DNA from: a virus
Virus record (IMG/VR): IMGVR_UViG_3300045988_137032
Location: 96,001-160,000 of that record
Length of the DNA stretch: 64,000 nt
Strand: one strand, 5' to 3'
Both the position numbers and the translations under genes were made by a program. Each line of letters opens with the position of its first letter. Within the stretch, counting starts at the first letter, position 1. Below, piece by piece: positions 1 to 62,771 of this stretch. The notes beneath the pieces were generated by a model, which saw only the letters and a program-made list of their open reading frames with translations, was not told the DNA's origin and did no database searches.

Positions 1-14
1 GTAAAGTATCTATC

Positions 15-2537: not shown

Positions 2538-3398
2538 TTAAAAGCTGATTTTCTCGAGGCTCTCTGCAACAATGTCACACTCACTGTCACTGAACTTATC
2601 GATCTGCTTGTCGCGGATGATCATGCCTTCAACAACCATGTTGAGGATGTCGGTGTTGTAGATAGACTTGATCTTCTCACGGCTGGTCTTGGGCTTGGTA
2701 GCATCTTCAGCAACAACAGCATCCTCTTTGATGTGACGCATAGTTTCGAGAAGCTTTTTCTCGAAAGGATCGTATGCATCAGGATAGTTTTCCTGGACGT
2801 AATCCTTCCAATAGCCATCCATGCCAGGAATGATGTTACGGATTTTCCTGATAGCGTTGATATCCCCAGCAAGCTCAACGAGGTACTTAGCCATGTGATG
2901 TGCTTCGTCCTTCTTGATCTCGTTAATGGCGAGCTCCTCAAAGTCCAAAGGATCACCATCCTGATCGATATACCTGGCATTGATGATAGGCATACGATCA
3001 TTGGGAATGGCAATCTTGATGATGATGGAACTGATATACCTGGGGCTCGTAATGTTCTCGCCAAAGGAAAGCAGCTGATTCCGAAGGATATTGTCGATCA
3101 GAATCGAGAAGTTTCCCTCCGTGATCAGGTCACGGGAAATGCTGTAGTTGTGGATCTGCTTGCAGATCGTGATATGGACATTGATCATTGCAGGAACCAT
3201 GCCCATATCCTTGCTGTTTTCGTTATCCCAGCAAGCACAGACGATATGCTGGTCAACTACGTTGCCGATGAACGGAAAACCTTCGTCTTCCTCATCATCG
3301 TCAATCGGGTTGTAGTGGAGCATCGTTACAGGCCCCTGCCAGACAATGCTGTAGTTGTTACGGGTGAATTTCCATTCAGGTAACTGTTTCTCGCACAT
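2538..3398 (-). CDS. hypothetical protein
   Basis: 286-aa ORF with GGAGGAGG upstream of the ATG. Abuts the stop of the upstream gene. Confidence 0.7.
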   Translation of the reverse strand: MCEKQLPEWKFTRNNYSIVWQGPVTMLHYNPIDDDEEDEGFPFIGNVVDQHIVCACWDNENSKDMGMVPAMINVHITICKQIHNYSISRDLITEGNFSILIDNILRNQLLSFGENITSPRYISSIIIKIAIPNDRMPIINARYIDQDGDPLDFEELAINEIKKDEAHHMAKYLVELAGDINAIRKIRNIIPGMDGYWKDYVQENYPDAYDPFEKKLLETMRHIKEDAVVAEDATKPKTSREKIKSIYNTDILNMVVEGMIIRDKQIDKFSDSECDIVAESLEKISF

Positions 3399-7960: not shown

Positions 7961-9376
7961 TTAACAAGTGCAGAAGTTGTACAGGTTGATCTTCTCACAC
8001 TTATCAATCATGAAGTAGTTATTCAGTTTACCAGTATCACGACTGATCATCATACGAGAGACGGGATCGAACTTGCGGAATGCATGTTCGAGTTCTTTGT
8101 CCATAAGGCCGATGATATTCAGAATATCACCATCGAAGTCTGCATTCAAACCAGGAAGAACGCTCAGAGGAACCGACAGAGTAAAGTCAGATACATCAGA
8201 CTTAATGCTGCGGATATCCATCAGAAGCATGCTGTAATAGTTCAGAGTAGGATTTCGGTTGATGATAATCTTTGGATGCTCCTTATTGACGATGAAGCAC
8301 ATAACCTGATAAATCTTCGGATCAAACTTATAAGCATTGCGATAACGCTCATAAGCTTTTGCCAGAGGAATATCATCCAGCTTCATCAGCCATTCAATGA
8401 TCTTGAACTTAAACATCTCAAGGAAGGTATTGTAACTCAGATCAACCTCAGAGTCACGCAGAGTAGGATTCGGGATAATGACATTACGAGAGGTGTAGTT
8501 TAATGCACCACCGAGAATCTGTCCACGAATCCAACCTTCCTTACCATTCAAGGCATCGAAGTTTTCATCCCAGATATCATTGACACGACCCTGGATGCTA
8601 TGCAGGATATATGCACGATCAATATCCTCGCTGTTCTTGAGCTTATCGCTCAGACTAAACAGCGGGTTGATATTACGGTCGATTGTATTGTAGTAGTAAG
8701 TATCAGTAGTCGTAGACTGAGGACGAAGAAGAGTAGAGTAGATAGGAATGTGTGAAGTAAACACAGCACTCTTTTCACTCTTAATGCGATCAAGTTCATT
8801 GATCGCACTCTTCTTTTTGGTCTTAACGAACTCAATGATTTCATCGAAGTTCTCTTTGAATTCGACAAGACCAATTCCACCAAATCCACCAAGAGCCGCC
8901 TGCTCTTCAGGATCAAAGTATCTCTTTCTCTGACCATCCACGTCAACGATGTACTTATCGTTGATCATGGCCTCCAACATACCTTTCTTCATACAAGAAG
9001 ACAACTTCTTATAGTAGAAAGGATTGATGATGAAATTATCACCCAGTGCAATCCAACCAGTGAATTCGATGTTGACATCTTCGTACTTCACAGGCTTTCC
9101 GCAGATGGGACAAATTTCACCAGCGAACATCTTCCCTTTGAATGCACCACATTCACAGCGATAACGCTCAATGAATGCGTTCTCGTCTTCGTAGTTCGTT
9201 CCGTACAGTGGCGAACGAGCACCATAAAGACTCTTCTGTTTCGTGTCATCAAACTTGATAACTGCGGGCTCCGTAATGGTAAACCCGTTATTCGTCAGGA
9301 TGTCATTTACATATTCAACGTCCCAATTCAACCGCTTAATACGCACACGGTTTTTCCCATGCTTGTGCTTGCCCAT
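7961..9376 (-). CDS. multisubunit RNA polymerase beta-prime subunit, N-terminal fragment
   Basis: Catalytic NADFDGD motif (LNADFDGDILNIIG). N-terminal Zn-ribbon CECG...CPICG. GGAGG SD. Confidence 0.85.
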   Translation of the reverse strand: MGKHKHGKNRVRIKRLNWDVEYVNDILTNNGFTITEPAVIKFDDTKQKSLYGARSPLYGTNYEDENAFIERYRCECGAFKGKMFAGEICPICGKPVKYEDVNIEFTGWIALGDNFIINPFYYKKLSSCMKKGMLEAMINDKYIVDVDGQRKRYFDPEEQAALGGFGGIGLVEFKENFDEIIEFVKTKKKSAINELDRIKSEKSAVFTSHIPIYSTLLRPQSTTTDTYYYNTIDRNINPLFSLSDKLKNSEDIDRAYILHSIQGRVNDIWDENFDALNGKEGWIRGQILGGALNYTSRNVIIPNPTLRDSEVDLSYNTFLEMFKFKIIEWLMKLDDIPLAKAYERYRNAYKFDPKIYQVMCFIVNKEHPKIIINRNPTLNYYSMLLMDIRSIKSDVSDFTLSVPLSVLPGLNADFDGDILNIIGLMDKELEHAFRKFDPVSRMMISRDTGKLNNYFMIDKCEKINLYNFCTC

Positions 9377-12073: not shown

Positions 12074-14368
12074 TTAGGCTTCTCCGCGAAGACCAGTCTC
12101 ATCAACTACGGTATCCTCCTTAAAGGCGGGTACATTATCGTACTCACTCTTATCAGGACCAATCACGTAGTCGGTGTTCTTAAGCTGCTCCATAACAAGC
12201 TTCTTGAACTCATCAGCATCCATAAGTCCCTGATTTGCAAGGACTTCTTTCTCGATTTCCTTCTTACGCTTGAGAAGCATGAATTGATATTCGGTGCACA
12301 TATACTCCTCATCATCCAGAGTATATACGTTGATGTGATCATCGTCATATTCCCGAATCTCATCTTCATCGTCTACGAATTCAATCTTGATGCCAAGACT
12401 CTTCAGATAGACAGCAAAGATTTCATTGACACGTGAAGTGTATGTCTTAGGCAGGACAAATTCATCCTTACCCTCAACAAGGTTCTTTGCGAGATCACGA
12501 CGAGCACCAGAAGATGCACGATAGAACAGGTTGAACAGCTGGATATCTTCAGGCTCCACCGCAATAGAGAAGTTGAGCGTCTCAAACTCGCCAAAACGAA
12601 TCGGAGTAGAAGACCGAAGCTCTGTGAAGTTCTTATTCCGGTAACTTCTTTCCGGAAGTCCCTTCGTATTCACAGAACCAGTGCTACGAACACTGAAGCC
12701 CTTACGAGAAGTCTGCTTCAGTTTCAAGATGTACATCTCTCCACAATACATGGGATTGAGCATCTTTATCTGACGACCAAACCGATTGATGTAAACATCG
12801 TAGGGTTTCAGGAAATCGTACTTATCGAAAATCTTAAGGAACCGATAGAAGATAGGTTCATGCTCCCACATAGGTTTCTGATGAATATAGATACGATTAT
12901 TCATTGCATCGTTGATATAATCATCTTTATCCTTTTCAGAGAGCTTGTCGTAGACTTCCTTCATACGATCGTGCTGTTCGGGGTTAAAGTCGTTGATGAT
13001 ATCGAAAAGAAGTTTCTCACGTTCTTTCCGAGTTTTCTTCATCTTCATCTGATCACGGACTTTATTGCAGATGAAGTTGATTGTGATTTCATAGATTGGG
13101 AATGCAGTCGTACGGTTAATGATTGCCAACACATTGAAGAGCAAGTCAACCGTCACCTTATTACCACAATCATCGAAATAATACGGCATCTGGTCATCCG
13201 GACGAATCTCGGAAATAACGCATTTATTACCGTATCGACCAGTAATCTTCTGACCGATATCCAGATGGACAATACCCTTTACCGTAATCTCGATAAAGAC
13301 ATTGGAGAAGAGAGAATCCTGATTCTTCCAGCGCTTCGTATCATCAAGGAACTCAACTGCTCTCTTGTAGATATAATTGATTTCTTTAGAATACTTTGCG
13401 CCAGAATCAAAGATCTTCTCACAGGCATCTTTGATCTGTTCATAGTAGACTTTCTGGCTATTCAGATACTTCAGAATCTGATGGTTAAACGGAGTATCTT
13501 CCATTTCCGGATTATTCGAATAGATGGTAATATCCACAACCTGACCATTCTTGAAATACGAGATATCGCCTTCTCCACTACGAGACAAAGAGTCGTCTTT
13601 AAATTCACTCAGAAGCTGATCTTTGCTAAGAGCACGTTTTGCTGCTACTTCGCCAGTAGCATATTCTCCAATATCAGGGAACGGCTTATACTCACCGTCT
13701 TCACCATAAAGATTCAGAAGGAATTCGTTGTCGTTCACACTAATAGGAACCTGATTGATTTCGATGCTGTCCATTTTATTCCGCATGCTCTCGGAAATAA
13801 CAGCAGCATCTTCGGACGTGGAGGAATCTGTCACATACATAATGTGGACGTTCTTACCATAACCATAGTTCATGGTTTCATCGTAAGAACGAGACTTCTT
13901 TACAACAGTACCCTTCGGAATCTTATCGCCAATATCGAGTCCATCAATGTACTCGTTATTGTATTCGTATCCGAAGACTTCTGTCAGAGATTCGGAATCT
14001 CCGCGTTTCCATACTTCGTAATAGTCGTTTTTCTTGTCATACACGAAAAGCATGTAAGTAGTAGGATGATCAACGATATCCTCATACTTTACAACTTTAT
14101 CAACGACAACATAGTTACCTTTTGCTTCCCGATAACCACTAGAATGCTTACCAACGACATTTTCGCCATTGGTAAAGACACCAGGAAAGTCAGGGTTTAA
14201 AAGGTTCACAGTCTGCCGAAGATGAGAGGTAAACATAATGGAACGCATTGATGAGTTATACTGTGGAATACCCATCATGGTCATGCCGATTAAGCTATTA
14301 GAACCTTGCAGTTCTTCATTTGCTCTAAGCAGCATTTCCTTGTTAGAATACTTGACGTTTTCTGCCAT
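12074..14368 (-). CDS. multisubunit RNA polymerase beta-like subunit
   Basis: MRSIMFTSHLRQTVNL resembles RALMGxNMQRQAVPL. GQKITGRYGNKCVISEIRPDDQMPY resembles GDKxAGRHGNKGVxSxIxPxEDMPY. AGGAGG SD. Confidence 0.8.
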   Translation of the reverse strand: MAENVKYSNKEMLLRANEELQGSNSLIGMTMMGIPQYNSSMRSIMFTSHLRQTVNLLNPDFPGVFTNGENVVGKHSSGYREAKGNYVVVDKVVKYEDIVDHPTTYMLFVYDKKNDYYEVWKRGDSESLTEVFGYEYNNEYIDGLDIGDKIPKGTVVKKSRSYDETMNYGYGKNVHIMYVTDSSTSEDAAVISESMRNKMDSIEINQVPISVNDNEFLLNLYGEDGEYKPFPDIGEYATGEVAAKRALSKDQLLSEFKDDSLSRSGEGDISYFKNGQVVDITIYSNNPEMEDTPFNHQILKYLNSQKVYYEQIKDACEKIFDSGAKYSKEINYIYKRAVEFLDDTKRWKNQDSLFSNVFIEITVKGIVHLDIGQKITGRYGNKCVISEIRPDDQMPYYFDDCGNKVTVDLLFNVLAIINRTTAFPIYEITINFICNKVRDQMKMKKTRKEREKLLFDIINDFNPEQHDRMKEVYDKLSEKDKDDYINDAMNNRIYIHQKPMWEHEPIFYRFLKIFDKYDFLKPYDVYINRFGRQIKMLNPMYCGEMYILKLKQTSRKGFSVRSTGSVNTKGLPERSYRNKNFTELRSSTPIRFGEFETLNFSIAVEPEDIQLFNLFYRASSGARRDLAKNLVEGKDEFVLPKTYTSRVNEIFAVYLKSLGIKIEFVDDEDEIREYDDDHINVYTLDDEEYMCTEYQFMLLKRKKEIEKEVLANQGLMDADEFKKLVMEQLKNTDYVIGPDKSEYDNVPAFKEDTVVDETGLRGEA

Positions 14369-24090: not shown

Positions 24091-24122
24091 TTGACAAATG
24101 AATGCTAGAAAGAGGTGAGACT

Positions 24123-24443
24123 ATGAATGTACCTATAACACTAGCAAACGGAAATACCGTTGAACTTAATAACATCACTGAATCTGGTAATGGGTATATC
24201 AGATTCAGTGATGGTACCCAGATATGTTATGCTGTATATCAGCATAATAATGAATTATCAACGTATGTATCATTCCCAAGATCATATGCTAAACATATTC
24301 ATGTCATAGCAACACCAATAGATTATAATGATGGAGCTGAAACTATAGTTAATATAGGCCATATAGATCAATATGGGTTTTTATCATATTCGAATTCTAA
24401 TAGTGCAATCATTAACTATATTGCTATAGGTCGTTGGAAATAG
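24123..24443 (+). CDS. standalone tail-fibre-tip-like (gp53-like C-terminal domain) protein
   Basis: NGYIRFSDGTQICYA near the N-terminus and ...NYIAIGRWK at the C-terminus, as in fibre-tip domains (G-x-x-x-x-[NS]G-x-x-I-x-WG ... AIG-x-W). Confidence 0.55.
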   Translation: MNVPITLANGNTVELNNITESGNGYIRFSDGTQICYAVYQHNNELSTYVSFPRSYAKHIHVIATPIDYNDGAETIVNIGHIDQYGFLSYSNSNSAIINYIAIGRWK

Positions 24444-24560: not shown

Positions 24561-24599
24561 ATGTAATTGGTTGACAAATGCAAGAAAGGAAGTGGTAAA

Positions 24600-24986
24600 A
24601 TGAATGTACCGATGTCATTATCCAGCGGTAAATCCATTGAATTAAACAACATCACTGAATCTGGTACTGGGTATATCAGATTCAGTGATGGTACACAAAT
24701 TTGCTATGGAATATGTAATGCGTTGAATGAATCAGGAATAAAATCAGATAGAGTTGCTGGTAAGTTTACATATCCAAAGTCTTTTATTAGTACGCCTGTA
24801 TGTAGCGTCATTAGACAATATGACAACTATAGTGAAAATATTGATAGTCTTAATAAAAATCTTACAATTGATCGAATCGTATCAAGCAGTTCAATTTGTT
24901 TATTTGATATTGTATGTACAACAGGCGAAATCGTTTTTCCTGATATAACATCTGCTAAATATATAGCAATCGGCCGTTGGAAATAA
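24600..24986 (+). CDS. standalone tail-fibre-tip-like protein (paralog)
   Basis: MNVPMSLSSGKSIELNNITESGTGYIRFSDGTQICYG ... KYIAIGRWK. Confidence 0.55.
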   Translation: MNVPMSLSSGKSIELNNITESGTGYIRFSDGTQICYGICNALNESGIKSDRVAGKFTYPKSFISTPVCSVIRQYDNYSENIDSLNKNLTIDRIVSSSSICLFDIVCTTGEIVFPDITSAKYIAIGRWK

Positions 24987-27736: not shown

Positions 27737-28012
27737 TTAAGATGCAATATATTCCACACAAATGTGCTCAAACGTATTGTTGCCTATGAAGTTATCGTAC
27801 TCCAGAGCAAGATCATTGATACGGTGAATATTATTCGCATCACTATCTTTCATGAGTACTTTCTCATCAAAGATAGATTGAATCACAGCTTCTTTTCTTG
27901 TATAATGCTGGCAAAAGTTTGTAGTAATGGTCTTAAGATTCCCATTACTATCTTTGAAAGATACCAGCTTCCTACAGAAATATTTCCTTCTCTTACTGGC
28001 TTTGAAAAACAT
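27737..28012 (-). CDS. small hypothetical protein
   Basis: 91-aa ORF with AAGGAG SD. Confidence 0.6.
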   Translation of the reverse strand: MFFKASKRRKYFCRKLVSFKDSNGNLKTITTNFCQHYTRKEAVIQSIFDEKVLMKDSDANNIHRINDLALEYDNFIGNNTFEHICVEYIAS

Positions 28013-28026
28013 CTATCGCATTCTCC

Positions 28027-28323
28027 TTAATAATAGTAAATTTCGGTAGACTCAATGTGGTATTTATTCATACCCTTCTTTCCATCAACGTCATAGCTGA
28101 CAGTAAGAGTATTATCATCAGGACGATCGATGTCAAGCTTCATATCATGATACCCACGGAAAGTTTCTTCCAGAGAATCAAGATAATCAACTGCGTCATC
28201 CTTATTGTAATATCCATGAAGTACTTTACTGGGAACACAAACTACTTCATTCCCAGAAGTAGTATCATAGATATCGTACATGATAAGGTTGACGTTAATG
28301 GTTTTTACTTCAGGATTTTCCAT
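28027..28323 (-). CDS. small hypothetical protein
   Basis: 98-aa ORF with AAGGAG SD. YNKDDAVDYLDSL helix motif. Confidence 0.6.
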   Translation of the reverse strand: MENPEVKTINVNLIMYDIYDTTSGNEVVCVPSKVLHGYYNKDDAVDYLDSLEETFRGYHDMKLDIDRPDDNTLTVSYDVDGKKGMNKYHIESTEIYYY

Positions 28324-28337
28324 AAATACAAATCTCC

Positions 28338-28619
28338 TTATACATATCCTTCGTCTTCTACACGAACTTTTTCAATTTGCACGGTATGGACTTCTTGAAT
28401 TACTTTAGATTCTGCTCCAGGAATCATATCGCATGCTGTGATACGTTTCGTATAAGTGAGGCCCATTCCATCCGGATGCATCATAGCGGTTAAATTATTC
28501 TTTGAAAACTTCTCCAACCACTTTTGTGCATTCAGCAAACGATAGAATGCGGAATTTACTTTTACTTCAATTCCGTATCCATATTCTTCTCGGTCGATGG
28601 TTTCAAGTATTACGTACAT
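28338..28619 (-). CDS. small hypothetical protein
   Basis: The ATG at 28619 (MYVILETID) has AAGGAGG upstream. Confidence 0.6.
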   Translation of the reverse strand: MYVILETIDREEYGYGIEVKVNSAFYRLLNAQKWLEKFSKNNLTAMMHPDGMGLTYTKRITACDMIPGAESKVIQEVHTVQIEKVRVEDEGYV

Positions 28620-28645
28620 AAACAATCCTCCTTGTGTTAATATAA

Positions 28646-29143
28646 TCAATAAAGGTTCATACCTTTTATCAATTCAAAGTTAAAGCAATAATACGTATCA
28701 TCTCTTGACGTATATGCTTTAATCGTACGAGGAACCCCATAGGTTGCAACTACTTCAGGAGAAGCAAGATCAGCATTCTTATTGATCTTAAGAACGATAT
28801 GACCTTTTGTATTCATCAAAGAAACCATATTAGGAATTTTGATCATCATTCCTGCTTTATAATAAGTGACCTTATGAGATGGATCATATCCAGTGGATTT
28901 TCGGCGGAATGTAACGGTAGCAATCTCATTATCGGGAGCCACTTCTACATTCGTTTCGCCATTGTAATTGCGTTTGAAGTATTTATCTTCACAATCACAA
29001 ATCAGTTTATTCCATGTGATATTTCTTGCAGTAGGTTTCATATACAGCTTAGACTGATACAAAGAGAATTTAGGTGCATAAGAACCATCATAGGATTCTT
29101 TCTTTTGAAGAATGGCAAATACTGCCATTTCTGTTTCAAACAT
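28646..29143 (-). CDS. small hypothetical protein
   Basis: 165-aa ORF with GAGGAGG SD. TAATG overlap. Confidence 0.6.
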   Translation of the reverse strand: MFETEMAVFAILQKKESYDGSYAPKFSLYQSKLYMKPTARNITWNKLICDCEDKYFKRNYNGETNVEVAPDNEIATVTFRRKSTGYDPSHKVTYYKAGMMIKIPNMVSLMNTKGHIVLKINKNADLASPEVVATYGVPRTIKAYTSRDDTYYCFNFELIKGMNLY

Positions 29144-29415
29144 TATTCGTCCTCCTCAACAAGAGTTTCCTTCTTTACCATCACGCGGATATCAACCGTT
29201 TTATCCGGATATTCAAAAGTTTGATGCAATATGCGATTGAGAAGTTTATTCAATGTGATGAAAGGAGATTCACATCCATTCGCATAATACTCCACAAGTC
29301 TATCATGTGCCAGTTTAATGGAAGCATATTTCTTTCCTTCAGTATACATAATGACATGATCTTTTGAAGTATCTTTAATATAAACATGAATCTCATAGAT
29401 AGGTATTTCTTTCAT
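29143..29415 (-). CDS. small hypothetical protein
   Basis: 90-aa ORF with AAGGAG SD. Confidence 0.6.
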   Translation of the reverse strand: MKEIPIYEIHVYIKDTSKDHVIMYTEGKKYASIKLAHDRLVEYYANGCESPFITLNKLLNRILHQTFEYPDKTVDIRVMVKKETLVEEDE

Positions 29416-29420
29416 AGAGT

Positions 29421-29711
29421 CTACTCTCCTTCATCAAATTCACATTCCTGAATTTGTGCTACTATGAGTATACAACCATACTTCTTGATATCACTGTAAT
29501 TGTAATAAGAAGCATAGCAAAACACGGTACCGTCATCTTCATTGACTTCAAATGGCGTATGCTTGAAAAGACTATGAACGGAATCACCATCTTTATTAAA
29601 GTCATCTTTAATGCGATAAAGAGCTTTAATTGCTTTCTCTCTATTCTTAAAGACTTTCTTTAAGATAGATGACGAATGGTTATTCGTAACCATAATGACA
29701 TAGGCTTTCAT
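29421..29711 (-). CDS. MK(V/A)Y(A/V)I-family protein
   Basis: MKAYVIMVTNN...FKNREKAIKALYRI. AAAGGAGG SD, preceded by TTAATGATATATTATA. Confidence 0.65.
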   Translation of the reverse strand: MKAYVIMVTNNHSSSILKKVFKNREKAIKALYRIKDDFNKDGDSVHSLFKHTPFEVNEDDGTVFCYASYYNYSDIKKYGCILIVAQIQECEFDEGE

Positions 29712-29754
29712 CTATTTAATACCTCCTTTAATGATCTATAAGTATAATATATCA

Positions 29755-30042
29755 TTAAAGGTTTCTTATTTCAACCCATACGGAAATCACTTCAGACGTA
29801 CTGGGTTCTTTTCCGTGATACACCATATCATGATAAATACACATCTTGTCATCATTTACTTTGTATTCAGAGAATTCAAAGTCTTTATGCTCAAGATGTG
29901 TATTATTTTCTTCATTGAGATTCAGTGTATCACAAATCTCATGAAGTGTATTGAGGGCTTGATCTTTTGAATAATACAGAGGATCATACAAATGATGGAT
30001 TCTGTCAGGATAATACCCTGATACGATAGCATAAACTTTCAT
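29755..30042 (-). CDS. MK(V/A)Y(A/V)I-family protein
   Basis: MKVYAIVSGYY...YYSKDQALNTLHEI. Confidence 0.65.
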   Translation of the reverse strand: MKVYAIVSGYYPDRIHHLYDPLYYSKDQALNTLHEICDTLNLNEENNTHLEHKDFEFSEYKVNDDKMCIYHDMVYHGKEPSTSEVISVWVEIRNL

Positions 30043-30054
30043 AATTAAACCTCA

Positions 30055-30339
30055 TCATTCTTTAGTAAATTCTGATGTATTTTCTGTATACATTTCTTTT
30101 GCAAATGCACTAATATTCGGTTCCTTAGAATCTTTCCAGGTTTCAATAACAGAAAGATCCTCTTCATCAACTGTGTAATACACATGACCATTTTCAACAG
30201 AAATAAGCTGTGACAGTGCGTTCTTTATTTCGTTAAGACGAGAAATACAGCTTTCTTTCGTTGTATAAACCATATCCTCTATCCGAGCAATATTCTTATA
30301 AGGCCCACCATAGGTATGGCAGATAGCATAAACTTTCAT
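30055..30339 (-). CDS. MK(V/A)Y(A/V)I-family protein
   Basis: MKVYAICHTYG...YTTKESCISRLNEI. Confidence 0.65.
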   Translation of the reverse strand: MKVYAICHTYGGPYKNIARIEDMVYTTKESCISRLNEIKNALSQLISVENGHVYYTVDEEDLSVIETWKDSKEPNISAFAKEMYTENTSEFTKE

Positions 30340-30341
30340 AA

Positions 30342-30617
30342 TTAGTTTACCTCAAATTCACGAATATATGCTACAATAATATTATGCTTAAGCTTAGGAT
30401 AATCTTTATATTTTATTGGGTAAAATATCGTCTCGGCCTTTTCATCAACTTCATACGGCTCATGTAATTCAGCAGCCGGTATACGAACCATTCCTTCATT
30501 ATACTGATTGCAAAGTTCATGAAGACGATCAATTGCTTTATCATGATCAAAATGGAATGATTTTATCTCAGGACCATTATTATTAATCAAACTAACTACA
30601 AAATAAACTTTCGTCAC
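30342..30617 (-). CDS. MK(V/A)Y(A/V)I-family protein; paralog of 37001..37282
   Basis: The GTG at 30617 (TKVYFVV) lies 10 nt after AAAGGA. The C-terminus EPYEVDEKAETIFYPIKYKDYPKLKHNII matches 37001..37282. Confidence 0.65.
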   Translation of the reverse strand: MTKVYFVVSLINNNGPEIKSFHFDHDKAIDRLHELCNQYNEGMVRIPAAELHEPYEVDEKAETIFYPIKYKDYPKLKHNIIVAYIREFEVN

Positions 30618-30709
30618 GGTAAACACATCCTTTCATATTTAACCGTCTACTATGATATGAAAAAATAAGCACACAAGCCGGATATAAAATCACAGCTTGT
30701 GTGCTTATT
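30618..30709. repeat. left copy of a perfect 92-bp inverted repeat (partner 36909..37000)
   Basis: GGTAAACACATCCTTTCATATTTAACCGTCTACTATGATATGAAAAAATAAGCACACAAGCCGGATATAAAATCACAGCTTGTGTGCTTATT equals the reverse complement of 36909-37000. It contains the hairpin 30664-30709. Confidence 0.9.
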
Positions 30710-30854: not shown

Positions 30855-32696
30855 TCATTCTCCGTTACCATTCGCTGTAATAATGCTTGTATTACCGAAT
30901 CCAATTTCGATATTCCAGGAATTGCACCAATGAGATACAATTTCAATATTACCTGATGGAAGCATTTCGGTTTTATAATCATTTGGTCTAAAGCCCAAGT
31001 TGCCGGTAAAATCAATAACAAGCTCTGTATTCGGCTTAACTAAGAATGACTCCTCAATATCCGTAACACTAATAGATTTAATATCCCTCTCTGTAAAATT
31101 AACCGTTGAATGATCTGATGATATTCTTCCTTTCACATACACATTAGATTTATATGATTTCAATAGATTTACAATTGTACTATTTTTAAATTCATCGCCT
31201 ATATTAAAAGTAAATTTTACCGTATCGGATTTATATCCATTATAATAGTAACCACCATCACTATCAGTTTTTATTGTATACATGTCAGCAGCCAATCCCC
31301 AATGAGACCTAAAATAGTTCTCATTTTTTGAAAGTTTTACATTTTCGACTATAATAAATCTTTCTTGAGCTGTATATTGCCCGCTTTTTACAGTGATCAC
31401 AGTATCGACTGTATTGCCTGTAACTTCACTATACGACATATCGCCAGTGGACGAATTTACATTGACAACTGAATTATTCGAGCTATACGAAATCGGACTT
31501 GATTGCGTGCATGTATCAGGTGTCGGCTTATACCTCAGGGTGCATGATTGCGCAATGCCAGGAATATAATATACACCACCAAAGTTACCATAATAGTATG
31601 GCCATGAACCACTTACTTTAGCAATACCAGTCTGAGCAACGCCCATATTATTCAAGTCAAGAATCTGAGAGAAAGTCTTCCCTCCATATTTATATGCAGC
31701 ATTCGATCCAGGATTGTCTTTCACCATGATATAATTTAAAACCCACTGCAATGTACTATAGTGGTCATTTGCGGTAGATATTGCATCAAATTTTGATTTT
31801 AAAGAATTTACAGCATCCGATATCGTAGAATCTTTCTGATCAACTTCGAATTGTGTGTAATATCTATCATCATGATTATGTGCTTCAGGAGGATATGCGG
31901 TAGGCTTATTGGTCACATTAGACCACGATATACCATCGGATGTTGTTACGATTTTAAACCATTCGCCAAACGAATTCGTTGAATCGCCATGTGCTTGTTT
32001 TCTCATATAAATGAGACCGCTATCCGTGATAGCAAGTTCAACCGCTCCAATTCCACTAGAATCAGTCCATCCGTCAAAGCCAATCACAGTTGCATAAGCT
32101 GTATTTGTTCCTGCATCTGGTAAACCGATAACTGTAGAATCTTTAATTCCTACAAAATTAAAACCATTTGTGTAATCACTAGGTTTTGTAGCAGTATCCC
32201 TAGTATCTTCGGTTATCTCAAGGCTATCATGCGTATGCGTATTAGGACTCTTGGTGTCCAGTTCTTCTTTCAGAAGTCTGCCACAGTTTGCAGACAATGC
32301 AGATTCACTGTCCGTAGAATCTAACCAGTCTTTCACCAGCGGTGAAACCTTATACCACGTGATATTAGCATTTGCTAATTTTTTACCGTAGAACACACTT
32401 GTCTCAAGATTAAAGATATAGTCGCCAGTTCCCGCTACGAATACATCATATCCATAGCTCTTACCGGATGTCAATTCATCTTTGATCTTAATAGCAGGTG
32501 TGTTTTTGACGTTGGAAGTATCCGTTACATTGTCACCGTCTTTATTGACGCTGTATGTAAAGCTTCCATGATACCAACCGGGTTCTGTAATCTGGATAAT
32601 ATCAGTCATAGTACTGGAAATTGTAATCGGTTTATTCAATGTAATATTAGATCCATCGTTTCTAATTAGAGATGCTTTCTTATCTCCAATAGTCAT
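30855..32696 (-). CDS. tail fibre protein
   Basis: SALSANCGRLLKEELDTKSPNTHTH and WSNVTNKPTAYPPEAHNHD are typical fibre repeat motifs. The ORF is open to 32804, but the ATG at 32696 has AGGATG upstream. Confidence 0.7.
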   Translation of the reverse strand: MTIGDKKASLIRNDGSNITLNKPITISSTMTDIIQITEPGWYHGSFTYSVNKDGDNVTDTSNVKNTPAIKIKDELTSGKSYGYDVFVAGTGDYIFNLETSVFYGKKLANANITWYKVSPLVKDWLDSTDSESALSANCGRLLKEELDTKSPNTHTHDSLEITEDTRDTATKPSDYTNGFNFVGIKDSTVIGLPDAGTNTAYATVIGFDGWTDSSGIGAVELAITDSGLIYMRKQAHGDSTNSFGEWFKIVTTSDGISWSNVTNKPTAYPPEAHNHDDRYYTQFEVDQKDSTISDAVNSLKSKFDAISTANDHYSTLQWVLNYIMVKDNPGSNAAYKYGGKTFSQILDLNNMGVAQTGIAKVSGSWPYYYGNFGGVYYIPGIAQSCTLRYKPTPDTCTQSSPISYSSNNSVVNVNSSTGDMSYSEVTGNTVDTVITVKSGQYTAQERFIIVENVKLSKNENYFRSHWGLAADMYTIKTDSDGGYYYNGYKSDTVKFTFNIGDEFKNSTIVNLLKSYKSNVYVKGRISSDHSTVNFTERDIKSISVTDIEESFLVKPNTELVIDFTGNLGFRPNDYKTEMLPSGNIEIVSHWCNSWNIEIGFGNTSIITANGNGE

Positions 32697-32751
32697 AGAA
32701 TCACATCCTAACATAAAACTAACATTACCCCGTAGGGGAATAAGATAGTTC

Positions 32752-32808
32752 CTGAATGGTATCCAATAAACAAATCCGTAACGGATTTGTTTATTGGATA
32801 CCATTCAG
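32752..32808. repeat. perfect 57-bp palindrome (28-bp arms, 1-nt centre) between divergent fibre genes
   Basis: CTGAATGGTATCCAATAAACAAATCCGT-A-ACGGATTTGTTTATTGGATACCATTCAG, checked base by base. Confidence 0.9.
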
Positions 32809-45239: not shown

Positions 45240-45350
45240 TTTATATCTCCTTTCATAAGTTAGATACGTTAAGAAAACGTTTTTTTTTGTCTTGTATAGC
45301 GATTTCTCATACGACAATTAGTTATACATAGTTACTATAGGAGGGTGCTC

Positions 45351-50459: not shown

Positions 50460-50583
50460 ATGAATTAGCTCTCCTTTCTATGATCCGAAAATAAGACTTA
50501 TACTCAAGTTGAAAGGATACTTAAGTAAAATAAGAAAAAAAAAATAAGGGATACCTAACTGGATGTTAGGTCCCTTATCGTGA

Positions 50584-52469: not shown

Positions 52470-52991
52470 ATGCGCGCTATAGTTGCAGTTAGTAATAACT
52501 GGGGTATTGGAAAGAATAATAAACTTCTTTTCCATATCAAAGAAGATATGCAGAGATTTAAGGAATTAACTACCGGGCATGTCTGTATTATGGGAAGAAA
52601 AACATTTGAATCTTTCCCATTTAAGAAACCATTACCAAATCGTACCAATGTAGTATTGACTCATGATACAAACTACAAGAGTGAATACGATAATGTGATC
52701 ATCGTTCATACCATGGATGAACTTAAGGAACTCATTAAGATGTATCCTTCGGAAGAAGTTTATCTCATTGGTGGCGATAGTCTTTACAATGCATTGATTG
52801 ACTATTGCAGTACAGCATACGTTACTTACGTTGATAAAGAAATGGATGCTGATGCATATTTCCCGAATCTTCATAAGAAGAAAGATTGGTGGATGATGAT
52901 TGATACTTTCCCGAATTATCATCATGATGATAAGACAGGATTGAATTACAGATTCTCTACCTATATCAATGATAACGTAAAAAGTTTATAA
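52470..52991 (+). CDS. folA: dihydrofolate reductase
   Basis: MRAIVAVSNNWGIGKNNKLLFHIKEDMQRFKELTTGHVCIMGRKTFESFP and LIGGDSLY. Confidence 0.85.
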   Translation: MRAIVAVSNNWGIGKNNKLLFHIKEDMQRFKELTTGHVCIMGRKTFESFPFKKPLPNRTNVVLTHDTNYKSEYDNVIIVHTMDELKELIKMYPSEEVYLIGGDSLYNALIDYCSTAYVTYVDKEMDADAYFPNLHKKKDWWMMIDTFPNYHHDDKTGLNYRFSTYINDNVKSL

Positions 52992-53023: not shown

Positions 53024-53314
53024 ATGAAAACCGGATATATGATAACTCGTTATATGACAAAGAAAAAAAATGGAACGAGTCATATTATAACACCGAAAAA
53101 CTTCGTAATGCTGGCTGGAAAAACACCAGGTGTCTTTATGAATGAATCAGATGGATGTAATGCATTTGAAGAAATCACAAATAAAGTACTTGATATGCAT
53201 GATAAGTTCGAAGAAGATATGAGTGAAAGAACTTCTCATATGCGAGTATTCCATGATAAAGAAAATGGATTTGACTACGTATATGTGTTAGAAACCATTT
53301 TCTTACAAGAATAA
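53024..53314 (+). CDS. hypothetical protein
   Basis: 96-aa ORF with AGGAG SD. Confidence 0.6.
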   Translation: MKTGYMITRYMTKKKNGTSHIITPKNFVMLAGKTPGVFMNESDGCNAFEEITNKVLDMHDKFEEDMSERTSHMRVFHDKENGFDYVYVLETIFLQE

Positions 53315-54259: not shown

Positions 54260-54536
54260 AGAAATACCCTCACCCTTTCAAATGGATAATTGTATGATAA
54301 ATATTAAGAATGTGTTTTTTTTGGTAATATTAGCAATTCAACGTTTTTATATCTCGTTACATCGCTCCCTAGTTATAGAAATTACAGCTATAATCAGGGA
54401 GCGAAGCCAGATTTTCATTCATCGGAGACGGCCGATGTGCTGCACCGATGTATTTAAAATCAACAAATGGTGGTGTATACATTGTAGGATTTTATATAAA
54501 TTAACATTGCACTAGATCACAAATATACTAAAAATA

Positions 54537-54570
54537 CCTAGTATGATAATCATTGCATTATCATACTAGG
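54537..54570. repeat. perfect 14-bp-stem hairpin
   Basis: CCTAGTATGATAAT-cattgc-ATTATCATACTAGG. A T-run follows on the minus strand. Confidence 0.8.
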
Positions 54571-54642
54571 TAAAAGAACCATCTGTTTGACATAAAATGA
54601 GCATAAATGTGACGTAAAATGCAGTATTTTGATAGAAAAATA

Positions 54643-54701
54643 CTGGAATATACATCTATAACAAATATACTTAGTATATTTGTTATAGATGTATATTCCA
54701 G
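54643..54701. repeat. perfect 59-bp palindrome (28-bp arms, 3-nt loop) upstream of the fibre/tip operon
   Basis: CTGGAATATACATCTATAACAAATATAC-TTA-GTATATTTGTTATAGATGTATATTCCAG, checked base by base. Confidence 0.9.
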
Positions 54702-54766: not shown

Positions 54767-55186
54767 ATGAAAGCCGAATATAAGGCAGAGAATATCAATG
54801 CGACTGAACTTTTGCTAAGGTATGCTGAACCAGAAAAATTCATCCTCCCAAAAGAACACACGAATGATTTTGGAGATGTAGGGCATGATTCAAAATCAAT
54901 GCAAGTATTTGAATCATATGAGCTGGAAGGAGCTCCTGATTTGTATGGACATATAATCCATATAAATGGTCAATACGGTAGCATGTATCATTATGCATCA
55001 TCTGAGTTATTCTTAGGATGGCCATCGCATACCGATACTACATCTATAAAAACGCCACCCATATATTATAGAGCTCATTCAGATAAAATCGATGAGCTTG
55101 GTTGGACACCGTGGAGAAGACTTGTTTACGAAGACGAAGTTGTAGAAATCGTAAATTCAGTCTTAGCGGAAAAAGGATTGATTTAA
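54767..55186 (+). CDS. putative fibre-associated protein (weak)
   Basis: The ATG at 54767 has GAGGTG upstream. First gene of an operon with three tip-like genes. C-terminus DELGWTPWRRLVYEDE. Confidence 0.4.
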   Translation: MKAEYKAENINATELLLRYAEPEKFILPKEHTNDFGDVGHDSKSMQVFESYELEGAPDLYGHIIHINGQYGSMYHYASSELFLGWPSHTDTTSIKTPPIYYRAHSDKIDELGWTPWRRLVYEDEVVEIVNSVLAEKGLI

Positions 55187-55197
55187 GGAGAATGAAT

Positions 55198-55580
55198 ATG
55201 GCTGAAAAAATTTTACTCACAAAAAAAACAATGAAGCCATCAGCCTACAACCGATAGCAATTCACGACATTGGTGTTGATTATATCCGATTCACCAACGG
55301 AGTTCAAATATGCTGGGGAACTAAAAGATTTAACGGTGATGAAATTGATTTAAATCAAGACGTATCAAAAGCATTCATTAAATTTCCAGTAGCTTTCAAT
55401 AGTGTACCTAATATTATACTCGGGCGTCAATGTGGATATCGTTATACTACAAACAACGATGATGCTGGACTATATGCAGGGTATATAGAACCAGACCATT
55501 TTGTAGTCTGTGGCTCTACTAAAATGGACCGTTCTGAAATCGCAGTGTGTATGTATGTTGCTTTTGGTAGATGGAAATAA
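55198..55580 (+). CDS. tail-fibre-tip-like paralog needing a -1 shift/+1 A in an A8 tract (55221-55228)
   Basis: AAGGAG plus the ATG at 55198 gives MAEKILLTKK, then a stop at 55255. The -1 frame reads NNEAISLQPIAIHDIGVDYIRFTNGVQICWG...MYVAFGRWK to the TAA at 55578, with no in-frame ATG of its own. Confidence 0.55.
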
Positions 55581-55591
55581 AGGAGACTATT

Positions 55592-55965
55592 ATGAGCGAA
55601 GTTTTCGTTGAAAAAAAAAAACGAATGAACTTATTCAGCTAATCAGCGTTGCTGATGCTGGAGACGGTTATATTCGTTTTTCTAATGGATTACAAATATG
55701 CCATGCCATTATAAACGATGATACCCCAAATGAAACTATCGGAAATTTCAATGGTGGTACTGTTACCTTTGCTATGCCGTTTATCAATGAGCCATCAATA
55801 ACATTATCACGATGGCTAAATGACCTATATTACAGTAATGAATATAGAAAAGAAATTCATTATTCATCACTTAGTCGTAAATCATTTATAGTTGTTGGCG
55901 TTAATGAAGCTGATGAAGCTAAAGTTATTAACTTTTCCTATATCGCAATAGGAAAATGGAAATGA
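55592..55965 (+). CDS. tail-fibre-tip-like paralog needing a -1 shift/+1 A in an A11 tract (55611-55621)
   Basis: AGGAG plus the ATG at 55592 gives MSEVFVEKKK, then a stop at 55640. The -1 frame reads TNELIQLISVADAGDGYIRFSNGLQICHA...YIAIGKWK. Confidence 0.55.
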
Positions 55966-55973
55966 GGATTTTT

Positions 55974-56303
55974 ATGTATATTAATTTGAAAAAAAAAAAC
56001 GGAGAGAATATTTCTGTAGTAGCTGTCGAAGATATTGCTAATAATTATATTAGATTTTCTAACGGTCTACAGATTGTATATTCAAATGGAATGATCACGG
56101 AATCAGGAGATACTATAACATTTCCTGTAGACTTTACCACAAATCCAGTTATAGTATTTAATCGTGATGGAGGATGTGATGGACTTTCCAACATCCATGG
56201 AGCTTTCGTTAACGGGCATGAACATAAAATATTCATTGATGATCCATCAAGTGCTATATTTCCGATATACTTCAACTATATTGCCATCGGTTGGTGGAAA
56301 TAA
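55974..56303 (+). CDS. tail-fibre-tip-like paralog, in frame through an A11 tract (55989-55999)
   Basis: MYINLKKKNGENISVVAVEDIANNYIRFSNGLQIVYS...NYIAIGWWK. Confidence 0.6.
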   Translation: MYINLKKKNGENISVVAVEDIANNYIRFSNGLQIVYSNGMITESGDTITFPVDFTTNPVIVFNRDGGCDGLSNIHGAFVNGHEHKIFIDDPSSAIFPIYFNYIAIGWWK

Positions 56304-56372: not shown

Positions 56373-56403
56373 GACCGAGTGTAGTTCTCAGCTACACTCG
56401 GTC
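56373..56403. terminator. hairpin between convergent genes
   Basis: GACCGAGTGTAG/CTACACTCGGTC. Confidence 0.55.
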
Positions 56404-56442: not shown

Positions 56443-56874
56443 TTACACATCCACATAAGGGCCATATGTAGCGCTCATACCTTCAGGATCTGGATAATTC
56501 ACAAATTTAAAGCTTAACTGAACTGCATCAGCTTTTCCAGTATTCTTAACCTTACTCTTGAAACGGTTAAGAATATCTTTTTCTTTATAGTACGGATCAA
56601 TACTAAGTTCGATTTTCTTATCACTATGAGTAAGCTTTGTAGTGATTTTAGGATCACCTGATTTAAGATTATCAATTTTGATGAATACTTTCACTGTATC
56701 CTTTGGAAACTTTCCCTTTCCGAAGTCATCAAGTAAGGTATTTGCAAACTGAGTAAATGCATTATCATCTGGCCAGTCATCCTCATTACTCAATATCTTA
56801 AGTTTCTCAACAACGAAATCACCATCCACAAGGCCTTCTTTATATGCTTCAAGAATAGCTTCTTGTAAGTCCAT
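56443..56874 (-). CDS. leader-bearing small protein (type II-like leader, dispersed copy)
   Basis: The ATG at 56874 (AAAGGAG upstream) gives MDLQEAILEAYKEGLVDG. Confidence 0.45.
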   Translation of the reverse strand: MDLQEAILEAYKEGLVDGDFVVEKLKILSNEDDWPDDNAFTQFANTLLDDFGKGKFPKDTVKVFIKIDNLKSGDPKITTKLTHSDKKIELSIDPYYKEKDILNRFKSKVKNTGKADAVQLSFKFVNYPDPEGMSATYGPYVDV

Positions 56875-56999
56875 TTTATTAATCTCCTTTCTATAAGTAT
56901 TTTCATTAAGAAATTGTCTTTTCCTATAAAATACCCTGAAAAACAAATAGCTAATCATACTAACTTAGTATAATAACTCATGAAAGGGGATAAACCAAA

Positions 57000-59183
57000 A
57001 TGATCGAATTCGATAAAGAAAAGATCTTCAATGGTAGCCCTGTGAAAGCTCTTCGGAATCAGTTCGAAGAATTAAAGCAGGACTATACGAAGGCTAATGC
57101 AATTCGGTATTCTCAGGTATATAGTGAGATGACTCTCACTGATATTCTGGATGGGTCTGAATATATCTTTACGGAACCTATGCGTGGTTGTGCTTTCTAT
57201 AAAGATCTTATGGAAAGCTGTGTAATTCCTTACGATCGTATCGAAGAAGAGTACGATAAGGTGAATCATTATCTGAAAGAAAATCAGAAAAAGATGAGCC
57301 CCACGATGCTTACTGAGTATACTGAACTTCTGAACCTCATGGAAACGAAGTTTACGAATACTTGCTATACTCGTATGATGTATGAGACGTTCCATGATAA
57401 TACTCATGCAAATGATCGTTTTTATGATTGCCACTTCAATCGTGAAGATGGCGTCATTGAGGAATCTACTGCAAATCCCATTTATAAAGCAAAGGGTCTG
57501 CGTCTGATTGATGCAATTACCCTTGGAGTTAAAAAGCCTGAAAAGAATGCTTCTTCCCTGTATAAGTACATGGTGGAAGAAGCTTTAGTTGAGAATCCTA
57601 CTACTCCGGAAGAGTATCAGCTGAATGCATACACAACCAATGTGGTTCGTCGTATGATGAAGGATTCCTACATCTCTGAAGCAGTCAATAATCTTCAGAA
57701 TATGAATCTTCGTACTCTGCTGAAGGGTCTTGCTAAGGAAGACCAGAGTGAATTTCTTGAGTCTGTTGTCATTGAGAAGGGTGATCCGGATGACATCGTC
57801 TATTCCACTACTGAGAATGCGGTGAATATGATGTTTGATGATGAGGATTCTCATTGTATCTTTGCAGAGAGTGATGCTCAGGAGAAGATGCATCGTCTTA
57901 GTTGTGAAAAAGCTATCATCGATATGAATGAAAGCTTCCTTTCTATGGATGCTATCAATGGTGTATCTGCTGGGTCTACCGCAAACTGGGATCCTATTGT
58001 GGAGAAGATTTGCTTTGAGTCTTCTTCCATCACAAAGATTCCTACTGATATTTCTGAGCAGGTTAAGATGCTTCGTGAAAAGTCTGAAGAGATTGCCAAC
58101 GAATATCAGCTTACCTGTGAAGCATATTACACTGCTGATGGTAGCCCTTCTAAGGTTGTGGCAATGGCCGTCAACGAGTATATTCCCAAGAAAGCATCCA
58201 AGCTGAAGAAGCAGAAGGCTGAGGATCTCGATGACGATGAAGATGAGGACGATTCCGAAGATGATACTACGGATGATGATTCATCTGATAGTGGTCATGC
58301 TGAGACCGATGCTGAGCATAACGCAAAACTTCAGTCTAAGAAGGATGCTCAGACAGCCAAGTATGCTGCCATGGATGACAGCGATATAAATTTTAACGAA
58401 GCGTCAGAAGACGAAGAGGAAGAAGACGATAAGAAGAATCCTAAGTCTGGCAAAGCCACTTCTGACGCAAAAGCATCTCCTGCTAAAAAGGATGATGGGG
58501 AAGAAGCCGAAGACGATACTCAGGATGATGAATCTTCTGATGATGAGGACGAATCTGATTCCAAGGAGCCTGTAAAGGATACTGTGGATAAAGAAGAGCC
58601 TAAAGCAAAAGAAGATGAAAAGAAACCTGATGAGAAGCCTAAGGAAGTAGAAAAACCTCAGAAGCGTTCTCTTGCTCAGAGGATTCAGAATAAGGCACTG
58701 GATACCAATGCTAAAGTTCATAAGAAGCTCGCTGAGATTCATCGTAAGAATATCGACCGAAAGAACGCTGCAAAAGCTGTAGGTAAAATTCCTGCTGGTG
58801 CTGGCGGTATGTTGAAAAAACAAATTGCTGAGTGGGAAGAAATGGATGATGATAAGCGTAAAGAGTATATCATCAAACCTGGTACTCGTAAGAAGTACTT
58901 CCGTGCTCTTAAGTTTGCTATTGAGCATTACATCGCTTTTGCCATTAATCCTCTGATGAATATCGTTCTTCTTATTTGCCAGAAGTTCTCTCATGATAAG
59001 GATATTCGTATTCGTAACGAATTGATTCATGAGCTTAAGACAGAGCAGAAAGTCATTGACGCTAAGATTAGCGATATGCAAAGTAATCCGAAGATGAATA
59101 ACGAACGCTATAAGCTGATGCGCTTTAAAGATAAGCTGGATGCTGAAATCGTTCGTGTCTCTGCAAATTCCAAGTATGTCTAA
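57000..59183 (+). CDS. large structural-module protein with a long acidic/Lys-rich central tract
   Basis: 727-aa ORF with AAAGGGG SD. Central DDDEDEDDSEDDTTDDDSSD...EEEEDDKK tract. Upstream of the capsid genes. Confidence 0.65.
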   Translation: MIEFDKEKIFNGSPVKALRNQFEELKQDYTKANAIRYSQVYSEMTLTDILDGSEYIFTEPMRGCAFYKDLMESCVIPYDRIEEEYDKVNHYLKENQKKMSPTMLTEYTELLNLMETKFTNTCYTRMMYETFHDNTHANDRFYDCHFNREDGVIEESTANPIYKAKGLRLIDAITLGVKKPEKNASSLYKYMVEEALVENPTTPEEYQLNAYTTNVVRRMMKDSYISEAVNNLQNMNLRTLLKGLAKEDQSEFLESVVIEKGDPDDIVYSTTENAVNMMFDDEDSHCIFAESDAQEKMHRLSCEKAIIDMNESFLSMDAINGVSAGSTANWDPIVEKICFESSSITKIPTDISEQVKMLREKSEEIANEYQLTCEAYYTADGSPSKVVAMAVNEYIPKKASKLKKQKAEDLDDDEDEDDSEDDTTDDDSSDSGHAETDAEHNAKLQSKKDAQTAKYAAMDDSDINFNEASEDEEEEDDKKNPKSGKATSDAKASPAKKDDGEEAEDDTQDDESSDDEDESDSKEPVKDTVDKEEPKAKEDEKKPDEKPKEVEKPQKRSLAQRIQNKALDTNAKVHKKLAEIHRKNIDRKNAAKAVGKIPAGAGGMLKKQIAEWEEMDDDKRKEYIIKPGTRKKYFRALKFAIEHYIAFAINPLMNIVLLICQKFSHDKDIRIRNELIHELKTEQKVIDAKISDMQSNPKMNNERYKLMRFKDKLDAEIVRVSANSKYV

Positions 59184-62702: not shown

Positions 62703-62771
62703 TCATGAATAAAATACTTCATTTTCTATGATCCGAAAAATAAAAAAAAAAGAAACTTAGGAGGTTTCATT

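Follow-up and report, generated by a model that had tools for sequence, protein, structure and literature searches.

Tandem fibre-tip-like genes with 5' coding poly(A) tracts, probable phase-variation loci of an uncultured gut jumbo phage

In the stretch of viral DNA analysed here (64,000 nucleotides, positions 96,001 to 160,000 of IMG/VR record IMGVR_UViG_3300045988_137032; hereafter the window, whose numbering is used unless a contig is named), three adjacent genes on the plus strand, at 55198–56303, form a tandem family of fibre-tip-like paralogs, each gated by a poly(A) contingency tract in the 5' part of its coding region. The existence of this family and of its gating tracts is real and well supported. 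Each tract is probably a contingency locus, at which heritable slipped-strand phase variation switches the paralog that carries it. The repeat lies within the coding region, its length shifts the reading frame and is polymorphic among near-identical genomes, and the copies that are out of frame (OFF) are intact. We prefer this reading because the repeat is pure and selected, the phase is near random, both wrong frames are occupied, the OFF copies are constrained, and the differences between near-identical genomes are confined to the tracts.

In the proposed mechanism, slipped-strand mispairing during DNA replication would add A's to a tract or remove them, and these changes would arise at a high rate and revert. 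Each paralog would thereby toggle heritably, reversibly and independently between in-frame (ON) and OFF states, and the phage population would carry varied combinations of expressed tips. The array proteins may be virion adhesins, the mixture of which would alter host recognition. The OFF alleles are probably leaky, because tracts of A10–A11 are efficient transcriptional slippage sites; slippage of the RNA polymerase, or sliding of the ribosome, on such tracts would yield some product from OFF copies.

The window belongs to a human-gut jumbo phage that is AR9/PBS1-like and uncultured. It contains genes for split multisubunit RNA-polymerase beta/beta' subunits at 15–1847, 7961–9376 (minus strand) and 12074–14368 (minus strand), and its best cultured matches, at 31–34% identity, are the Bacillus jumbo phages AR9 and PBS1 together with Staphylococcus (S6) and Listeria jumbo phages. 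The close relatives are uncultured contigs of 215–267 kb from human-gut metagenomes (Hadza, MERR22 and several SRA runs). AR9 and PBS1, which with Staphylococcus S6 are the nearest cultured relatives, are uracil-DNA jumbo phages.

Anatomy of the three genes

Gene 1 (55198–55580) is preceded by the Shine-Dalgarno (SD) sequence AAGGAG at 55185–55190 and begins with the ATG at 55198; gene 2 (55592–55965) has the same SD sequence at 55580–55585 and its ATG at 55592; gene 3 (55974–56303) has the SD sequence GAGGA and its ATG at 55974. The tracts are A8 at 55221–55228 in gene 1, A11 at 55611–55621 in gene 2 and A11 at 55989–55999 in gene 3. The runs, and the SD sequences and start codons of genes 1 and 2, are present in the sequence as an initial annotation, made without database searches, had described them. 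Its placement of the runs at codons 8–11 is correct for gene 1 and approximate for genes 2 (codons 7–11) and 3 (codons 5–9).

Gene 3 is ON in the window and encodes a protein of 109 amino acids (aa); a tract of A8 would likewise be in frame there. Genes 1 and 2 are OFF in the window, and for both of them the in-frame lengths are A9 or A12. The ATG frame of gene 1 (MAEKILLTKKTMKPSAYNR) stops at 55255–55257 after 19 codons, and that of gene 2 (MSEVFVEKKKRMNLFS) ends at 55642 after 16 codons, which the sequence check confirmed to be the early termination first reported. The conserved domain of both genes lies in the −1 frame relative to the ATG frame, and is open from 55206 to the TAA at 55578–55580 in gene 1 (124 codons) and from 55612 to the TGA at 55963–55965 in gene 2 (117 codons). 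The gene 1 domain frame has no ATG, GTG or TTG before 55524, and the sole start codon of the gene 2 domain frame is an internal ATG at 55774; neither gene, as had been stated, offers its domain frame a usable start near the 5' end.

The addition of one A would restore a 127-aa protein from gene 1 (predicted peptide across the tract junction, ...LLTKKNNEAISLQPIAIHDIGVDYIR) and a 124-aa protein from gene 2 (...VEKKKTNELIQLISVADAGDGYIR). These restored products show 32–33% identity to each other and to gene 3, and the motifs YIRF(S/T)NG.QI and Y.A.G.WK are common to all three, in agreement with the suggestion that an extra A recovers paralogs of gene 3. The three genes are true paralogs and the restored forms are real proteins, since the orthologs are in frame in other strains: those of gene 1 are 126–128 aa long (P0003, P0005, P0007, P0009, P0011 and P0013–P0016), and those of gene 2 are 121–124 aa long with KK or KKK at the tract (P0001, P0002, P0012 and P0017). 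For other gene 2 orthologs (P0004, P0008, P0010, P0021 and P0022) the gene callers used a TTG inside the out-of-frame arrangement. This TTG, just 5' of the gene 2 tract and in frame at A10, has no SD sequence at a usable distance; initiation there is unlikely, and its use by reinitiation after the 11-codon leader open reading frame (ORF) is conceivable.

Purity of the tracts

No homopolymer of the window is longer than its two A11 runs, and no other run reaches a length of 11. Shuffling gives an expectation of 0.24 such runs, a count of two was reached in 5 of 100 shuffles, and the two runs moreover occupy homologous positions of paralogs. Lysine is encoded in the window by AAA in 46% and by AAG in 54% of cases, and elsewhere in the window 6 of 93 KK pairs and one of seven KKK triplets consist entirely of AAA. 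Despite this preference for AAG, the tract is pure A, never interrupted, in 36 of 36 distinct alleles of relatives, which extends to the whole family the initial observation that the lysine run is written with AAA only. Because the homopolymer is pure in all alleles against the codon preference, we judge from the sequences that the tracts are selected and are no by-product of base composition.

Most other long homopolymers of the window (A10 at 50535–50544, A10 at 62742–62751, T10 at 30774 and T9 at 45280) are intergenic, and an A9 at 39127 lies in frame inside a gene. An A8 run at 53063, in frame with the peptide TKKKNG, was considered as a further member of the family and rejected as a chance occurrence; the corresponding codons in contig L103 are AAG AAA GAA, and the run is not conserved.

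Tract lengths and reading frames in related phages

A profile search gave 44 homologs, and the DNA of 22 related loci was used to tabulate the tract-bearing paralogs; after the removal of two spurious A6 rows, the survey comprised 36 distinct alleles in 40 allele-states. Searches against GenBank phages by megablast, with the locus and with 24 kb of the window, and by tblastn, with the restored gene 2, gave no match, and neither did a scan of IMG/VR with gene 3. Profile scans of IMG/VR and of JGI metagenomes returned distant relatives only (25–35% identity), which are devoid of A tracts with the exception of L039, and the exact DNA pattern of the gene 2 leader and tract had no match in IMG/VR and GTDB genomes and yielded no assignment to a host.

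At the same locus, the relatives carry up to eight tract-bearing paralogs, on both strands. Of those absent from the window, three are encoded by the minus strand and two, which lie upstream, by the plus strand; they are located at 1–1100 (minus strand) and 2580–3200 (plus strand) of contig L002, and in L098, L101 and L103 (minus strand). One of these additional paralogs is a gene of 59–66 aa, which keeps the leader MDINL-K(n)-NG and has a different C-terminus (...SLFPVGFSF...SITRTV).

The tract lengths of the 40 allele-states are A7 (one), A8 (four), A9 (eight), A10 (16, the commonest), A11 (nine) and A12 (two), so that 35 of the 40 have at least A9. In 18 allele-states the domain is in frame with the SD sequence and ATG (ON), and the other 22 are OFF; the state follows the tract length modulo 3 in every allele. 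The leader type of gene 1 is A7 in L101, A8 in L039 and A9 in L002–9 and L103–6; gene 2 has A9, A10 (commonest), A11 or A12; and gene 3 has A8 in L109 and P0018, A10 (OFF) in L002–6 and L108, A11 (ON), or A12 (OFF) in L100. The resulting combinations for genes 1, 2 and 3 are OFF, OFF and ON in the window as well as in L098; OFF, ON and ON in L101; ON, ON and OFF in L100; ON, OFF and OFF in L002; ON, OFF and ON in L107; and ON, ON and ON in L105.

The OFF states occupy both wrong frames, with lengths between A7 and A12, and corrections in either direction are needed. The single step of one added A, or of a −1 shift, which had been described for the two OFF genes, thus holds for genes 1 and 2 of the window and does not hold in the relatives, where OFF copies need either direction. 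This argues against a fixed programmed −1 frameshift and against any obligatory, conserved recoding. Programmed −1 ribosomal frameshifting on A-AAA-AAA has in its favour that the slippery heptamer is contained in all tracts, that both OFF genes of the window need a −1 shift, and that a stable hairpin (z −3.3), retained in six alleles, stands right after the gene 2 tract. However, about half of the strains have in-frame orthologs, and OFF copies require a +1 or −2 shift as often as −1 (gene 2 at A10; gene 3 at A10 or A12). Of the features of programmed sites, namely a heptamer, a structure 5–9 nucleotides (nt) downstream and a conserved −1 relation, the heptamer alone is present.

The predicted RNA hairpin itself (55622–55676; −21 kcal/mol) directly abuts the 3' end of the gene 2 tract, with a spacing of 0 nt, and the tracts of genes 1 and 3 have no such structure behind them. 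Among the six alleles that keep it there is a single covarying pair, and two pairs are broken in two sequences each; moreover, it stands in a segment that is nucleotide-invariant anyway, the 25 nt 3' of the tract being identical in six alleles whose overall synonymous divergence (dS) is 0.6–0.8. The hairpin could be an RNA element or merely the conserved 5' module of a mosaic gene. Altogether we regard programmed −1 frameshifting as extremely improbable.

Tract-only differences between near-identical genomes

Length changes at the level of DNA, which favour heritable slipped-strand variation among the three mechanisms first suggested, whereas the frame relation required by the programmed −1 frameshift is not conserved, are seen where nearly identical genomes are compared. 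Four assemblies (L103, L104, L105 and L106, two of them with the same biosample label) are at least 99.94% identical over 2–7.5 kb; their gene 2 tracts are A10, A10, A9 and A11, respectively, and the rest of the gene, of about 420 nt, is identical. Over 2484 nt, L109 and L002 differ by one mismatch and by the gene 3 tract, which is A8 in L109 and A10 in L002. The sole difference between L002 and L003 over 8384 nt is A11 versus A10 in a minus-strand paralog. In all such cases, in which the lengths are those of consensus assemblies, there are 0–2 other differences over 2–8 kb. A comparison with related phage genomes had been proposed as a check, and it has thus yielded both an array shared by relatives and length differences limited to its tracts.

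An error of sequencing or assembly in the homopolymers, with all true genomes in frame, would produce differences of the same tract-confined appearance; homopolymers of 10–11 are error-prone, and part of the contigs have low coverage. However, the same OFF lengths recur in independent samples and with different assemblers. The A10/A10 state of genes 2 and 3 of one strain was found in five samples from at least two studies (L002–L006), L098 and L099 agree in their tract lengths, as do L101 and L102, and the A8/A11/A11 of the window is repeated, with one mismatch in 8098 nt, in L001, an independent Logan assembly of run ERR636414, which is probably the source of the window too. Random assembly error is therefore no explanation of the pattern. 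Furthermore, more than half of the 40 allele-states are OFF, a proportion far above the error rate of short-read consensus sequences, and other tracts are stable in the same contigs. We consider an artefact very unlikely.

Selection on out-of-frame copies

One alternative is that genes 1 and 2 are pseudogenes, recently inactivated at a mutational hotspot and heading for loss. In every copy, OFF ones included, the domain frame is open over 101–146 codons, with no stops or further indels. Ratios of nonsynonymous to synonymous substitution (dN/dS, by the Nei-Gojobori method) in the domain frame of diverged alleles are about 0.1–0.55, including pairs in which both copies are OFF. For gene 1 the values against diverged alleles are 0.24–0.54 (0.33 for the window versus L098, both OFF), and for gene 2 they are 0.35–0.67 (0.35 for L002 versus L098, both OFF).

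The sole hint of relaxation among OFF copies comes from a comparison of the window with L101, its closest relative, in gene 1, where the tracts are A8 and A7, respectively. Between window 55227–55580 and L101 3631–3990 there are 15 nonsynonymous and two synonymous differences (dN/dS about 2), with an identity of about 97% for the rest of the two genomes. This excess may reflect diversifying selection, or a relaxation of constraint in a sub-lineage with a shortened tract; the contraction of the tract to A8 and A7 and the excess itself are what can be said for inactivation. Against it, dN/dS is 0.24–0.55 over the longer distances, pairs with both copies OFF included, sister strains have these genes ON, and the tract stays pure against the codon preference. 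Hence, loss of function is highly improbable, and the substitution patterns indicate that the OFF copies are under purifying selection and are not decaying.

Slippage at the RNA level

Transcriptional slippage at A runs is known from Thermus dnaX and from insertion sequence (IS) elements. In tssM of Citrobacter and Yersinia, a coding A run is followed by an out-of-frame domain, which is restored by gain or loss of A's in the mRNA; the run in Citrobacter is A11 (PMC4256274). All of these systems resemble the array in having a coding run of A9–A11 and an out-of-frame domain. They differ from it in that their arrangement is fixed and conserved and gives a defined ratio of two products, whereas in the array the frame varies and the upstream product has only 16–19 residues.

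It is conceivable that the array is decoded mainly by transcriptional slippage, possibly together with ribosome sliding. Stuttering of the phage or host RNA polymerase on A9–A12 would give a fixed share of in-frame mRNA from each copy, irrespective of the length in the genome; the frame in the DNA would then matter little, and the tract would tune dosage and not act as a switch. The predominance of A10 and of tracts of at least A9, noted above, falls in the range of efficient slippage; even short A runs induce slippage of T7 RNA polymerase (PMC6260861); the phage has split multisubunit RNA polymerases of its own; and the ON fraction is near that of random phase. In addition, purifying selection acts on gene 2 although at least eight diverged alleles of it have an out-of-frame A10. 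On the other side, the frame relation varies among orthologs, whereas known programmed sites keep theirs; about 45% of the allele-states are in frame, which is not a conserved out-of-frame arrangement. A run of about nine or more A's or T's, as in programmed transcriptional slippage, is present in genes 2 and 3 (A11), but gene 1 has only A8, and this length, like the A7 of L101, is short for slippage by a bacterial-type RNA polymerase. Changes of length in the DNA are, moreover, directly observed. Slippage at the RNA level fits heritable phase variation as a leak and does not replace it, and we consider it unlikely as the main decoder.

Several points nevertheless weigh against heritable phase variation. 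The tract lengths are those of consensus assemblies, not of reads, and both reversibility and heterogeneity within a population are inferred; some of the variant contigs have low coverage (2.3x for L106 and 4.8x for L003, by contig names). Most tracts are identical across four to five samples of a strain, and therefore switching is not fast enough to randomise the consensus lengths. The ON fraction of 45% does not depart significantly from the 33% of a random phase (binomial p about 0.19, calculated with 18 of 42, before the spurious rows were removed). This near-random fraction, together with the occurrence of gene 2 at the out-of-frame A10 in those diverged alleles, would also fit an expression that is largely independent of the DNA frame, e.g. 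by slippage at the RNA level; the commonness of A10 and its persistence in gene 2 leave room for RNA-level decoding that is more than a leak. Finally, Pfam and PHROG scans of the genes neighbouring the array supply no context of a structural module.

Fold and family of the array proteins

The AlphaFold2 (AF2) model of gene 3 is all-beta, with a predicted local distance difference test score (pLDDT) of 84.5. Its top Foldseek matches in the PDB are gp53 of phage AP22 (4mtm; TMq 0.68, E-value = 1.3e-3), the foot of the R1/R2 pyocin fibres (TMq 0.58–0.63), C-terminal domains of tailspikes, and H-type lectins. AP22 gp53, the R-type pyocin foot (6cl5, 6cl6, 6ct8 and 6cxb) and the H-type lectins thus share the all-beta fold of gene 3 (TMq 0.58–0.68, Foldseek probability 1.0). 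In sequence, however, these proteins are only 15–18% identical to the array protein, and the Pfam scores stay below the gathering thresholds: 17–18 versus 24.9 bits for PF21882 (Gp53-like_C), and 14.5–17 versus 24 for PF09458 (H_lectin). In BFVD there are 39 matches with E-values of 1e-3 or lower, mostly to tail fibres or receptor-binding proteins, some of which are standalone proteins of 105–145 aa. In PHROG, two tail-fibre families match at their C-terminal ends, and in the distant relatives the domain constitutes the last 90 or so residues of fibre proteins or open frames of 250–1000 aa.

Fold and homology of the C-terminal tips of tail fibres thus bear out the label of fibre-tip paralogs that was first given to the genes. 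The domain of AP22 gp53 and of the pyocins terminates a long fibre, whereas in the array it is encoded by a standalone ORF with about 25 residues before the domain. From the model and these matches, the array genes are predicted to constitute a lineage-specific family of standalone proteins of about 110–127 aa with the fold of a tail-fibre tip.

Two further tandem paralogs of the tip domain, both without tracts, are encoded on the plus strand of the window at 24102–24443 and 24567–24986 (MNVPITLANG...GYIRFSDGTQICY...YIAIGRWK); they have TLANG in place of the KKKNG of the array genes. The switch is therefore specific to one sub-family. An unrelated metagenomic contig (L042, 2180–3800) has three tandem standalone paralogs of the domain, again without A tracts, and standalone tip arrays therefore exist outside the AR9/PBS1-like lineage.

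Comparison with known switching systems

The opa genes of Neisseria are many paralogous adhesin genes, each with a 5' coding repeat, which switch frame independently and give a combinatorial surface display. The array resembles them in being a paralog family with a repeat just after the start of each gene; however, opa is bacterial and has pentameric CTCTT repeats in the signal-peptide region, whereas the array belongs to a phage and has a mononucleotide lysine tract. Among phages, Sorensen et al. 2021 (Cell Rep 35:109214) reportedly found hypermutable polyG tracts in Campylobacter Fletchervirus phages, including receptor-binding genes, and changes in tract length are said to give phenotypically mixed phage populations that escape variation of the host receptor. 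There, too, the homopolymer tracts lie inside phage genes, but the repeated base is G, and the tracts belong to a small number of single-copy genes in cultured phages, whereas the array has A tracts at a fixed 5' position in every paralog of an uncultured jumbo phage.

Coding poly(A) runs as in the array also occur in phages T2, T4 and T6. The A9 of T2 agt and the A6 of T4 rIIA undergo reversible +/−1 frameshifts at 10^3–10^4 times the rate of single-nucleotide polymorphisms, and Gomez, Barrick & Waters 2025 (bioRxiv) read the poly(A) frameshifting of these three phages as bet-hedging; in tail-fibre genes of coliphages, runs of six or more are under-represented (PMC12633550). The T2/T4/T6 loci are scattered single runs in many gene classes, in contrast to the array, where the runs are longer (up to 12), are clearly selected against codon preference, and extend over a whole paralog family. 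The initial annotation knew of no described tip array gated in this way, which must be qualified by these precedents for homopolymer switching in phages (Campylobacter polyG and T2/T4 poly(A)). In short, the principle of the switch is already known, and its gene-by-gene use across an array of putative-adhesin paralogs is new.

Known routes to diversification of host range include diversity-generating retroelements (DGRs), invertible cassettes, and homopolymer tracts in a few cultured phages. The array would represent the homopolymer route, used systematically on a whole paralog family in an abundant lineage of uncultured gut jumbo phages. A further and more tentative possibility is that these AR9/PBS1-like phages possess a combinatorial repertoire of up to eight detachable tips or adhesins, in which DNA slippage would set the tips that are ON and polymerase slippage would supply a low basal level of the rest, so that one burst would consist of mixed-tip virions hedging host range. 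Such a repertoire, if true, would do with homopolymers in several genes what DGRs and invertible tail-fibre cassettes do by other means, and would parallel, in a phage, the Opa variation of Neisseria. The array also offers a system for the study of how work is divided between DNA-level and RNA-level slippage on one tract. It exemplifies a class of seeming "frameshifted pseudogenes", in phage genomes from metagenomes, that ought to be neither removed nor automatically corrected, and similar loci can be searched for by their signature: an SD sequence and ATG, 4–7 codons, a run of at least eight A's, and a conserved domain in any frame.

Genomic neighbourhood

The first gene of the apparent operon (54767–55186, plus strand) has no tract and encodes a protein of 139 aa; it stands directly 5' of gene 1 in all relatives. 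The protein has a conserved C-terminus (GWTPW...LVY.DE...EKGLI) and only three close homologs, without a Pfam, PHROG or PDB sequence match; by hhalign it is unrelated to the tip family, and its AF2 model is unusable (pLDDT 35). Immediately 5' of the array operon, the divergent intergenic region contains a perfect palindrome with 27-bp arms and a 5-nt loop (54643–54701) and a hairpin with a 16-bp stem (54535–54572), either of which could be an operator or terminator. Downstream, a perfect hairpin with a 12-bp stem (56373–56403), between the array and a convergent gene (56443–56958, minus strand), is the probable end of the transcription unit.

The gene directly downstream of the array in every relative (57000–59183, plus strand) encodes a 727-aa protein with a long, acidic, low-complexity centre rich in Lys, Glu and Asp, and without a family match. 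A dihydrofolate reductase gene is situated 2 kb upstream of the array, at 52470–52991. Elsewhere in the window, a 649-aa protein with phage tail-fibre repeats (PF22337) is encoded at 30855–32804 on the minus strand, and 3' of its gene, on the same strand, there are about nine ORFs of 90–100 aa (27737–30626), which may be another array of small proteins beside a fibre gene.

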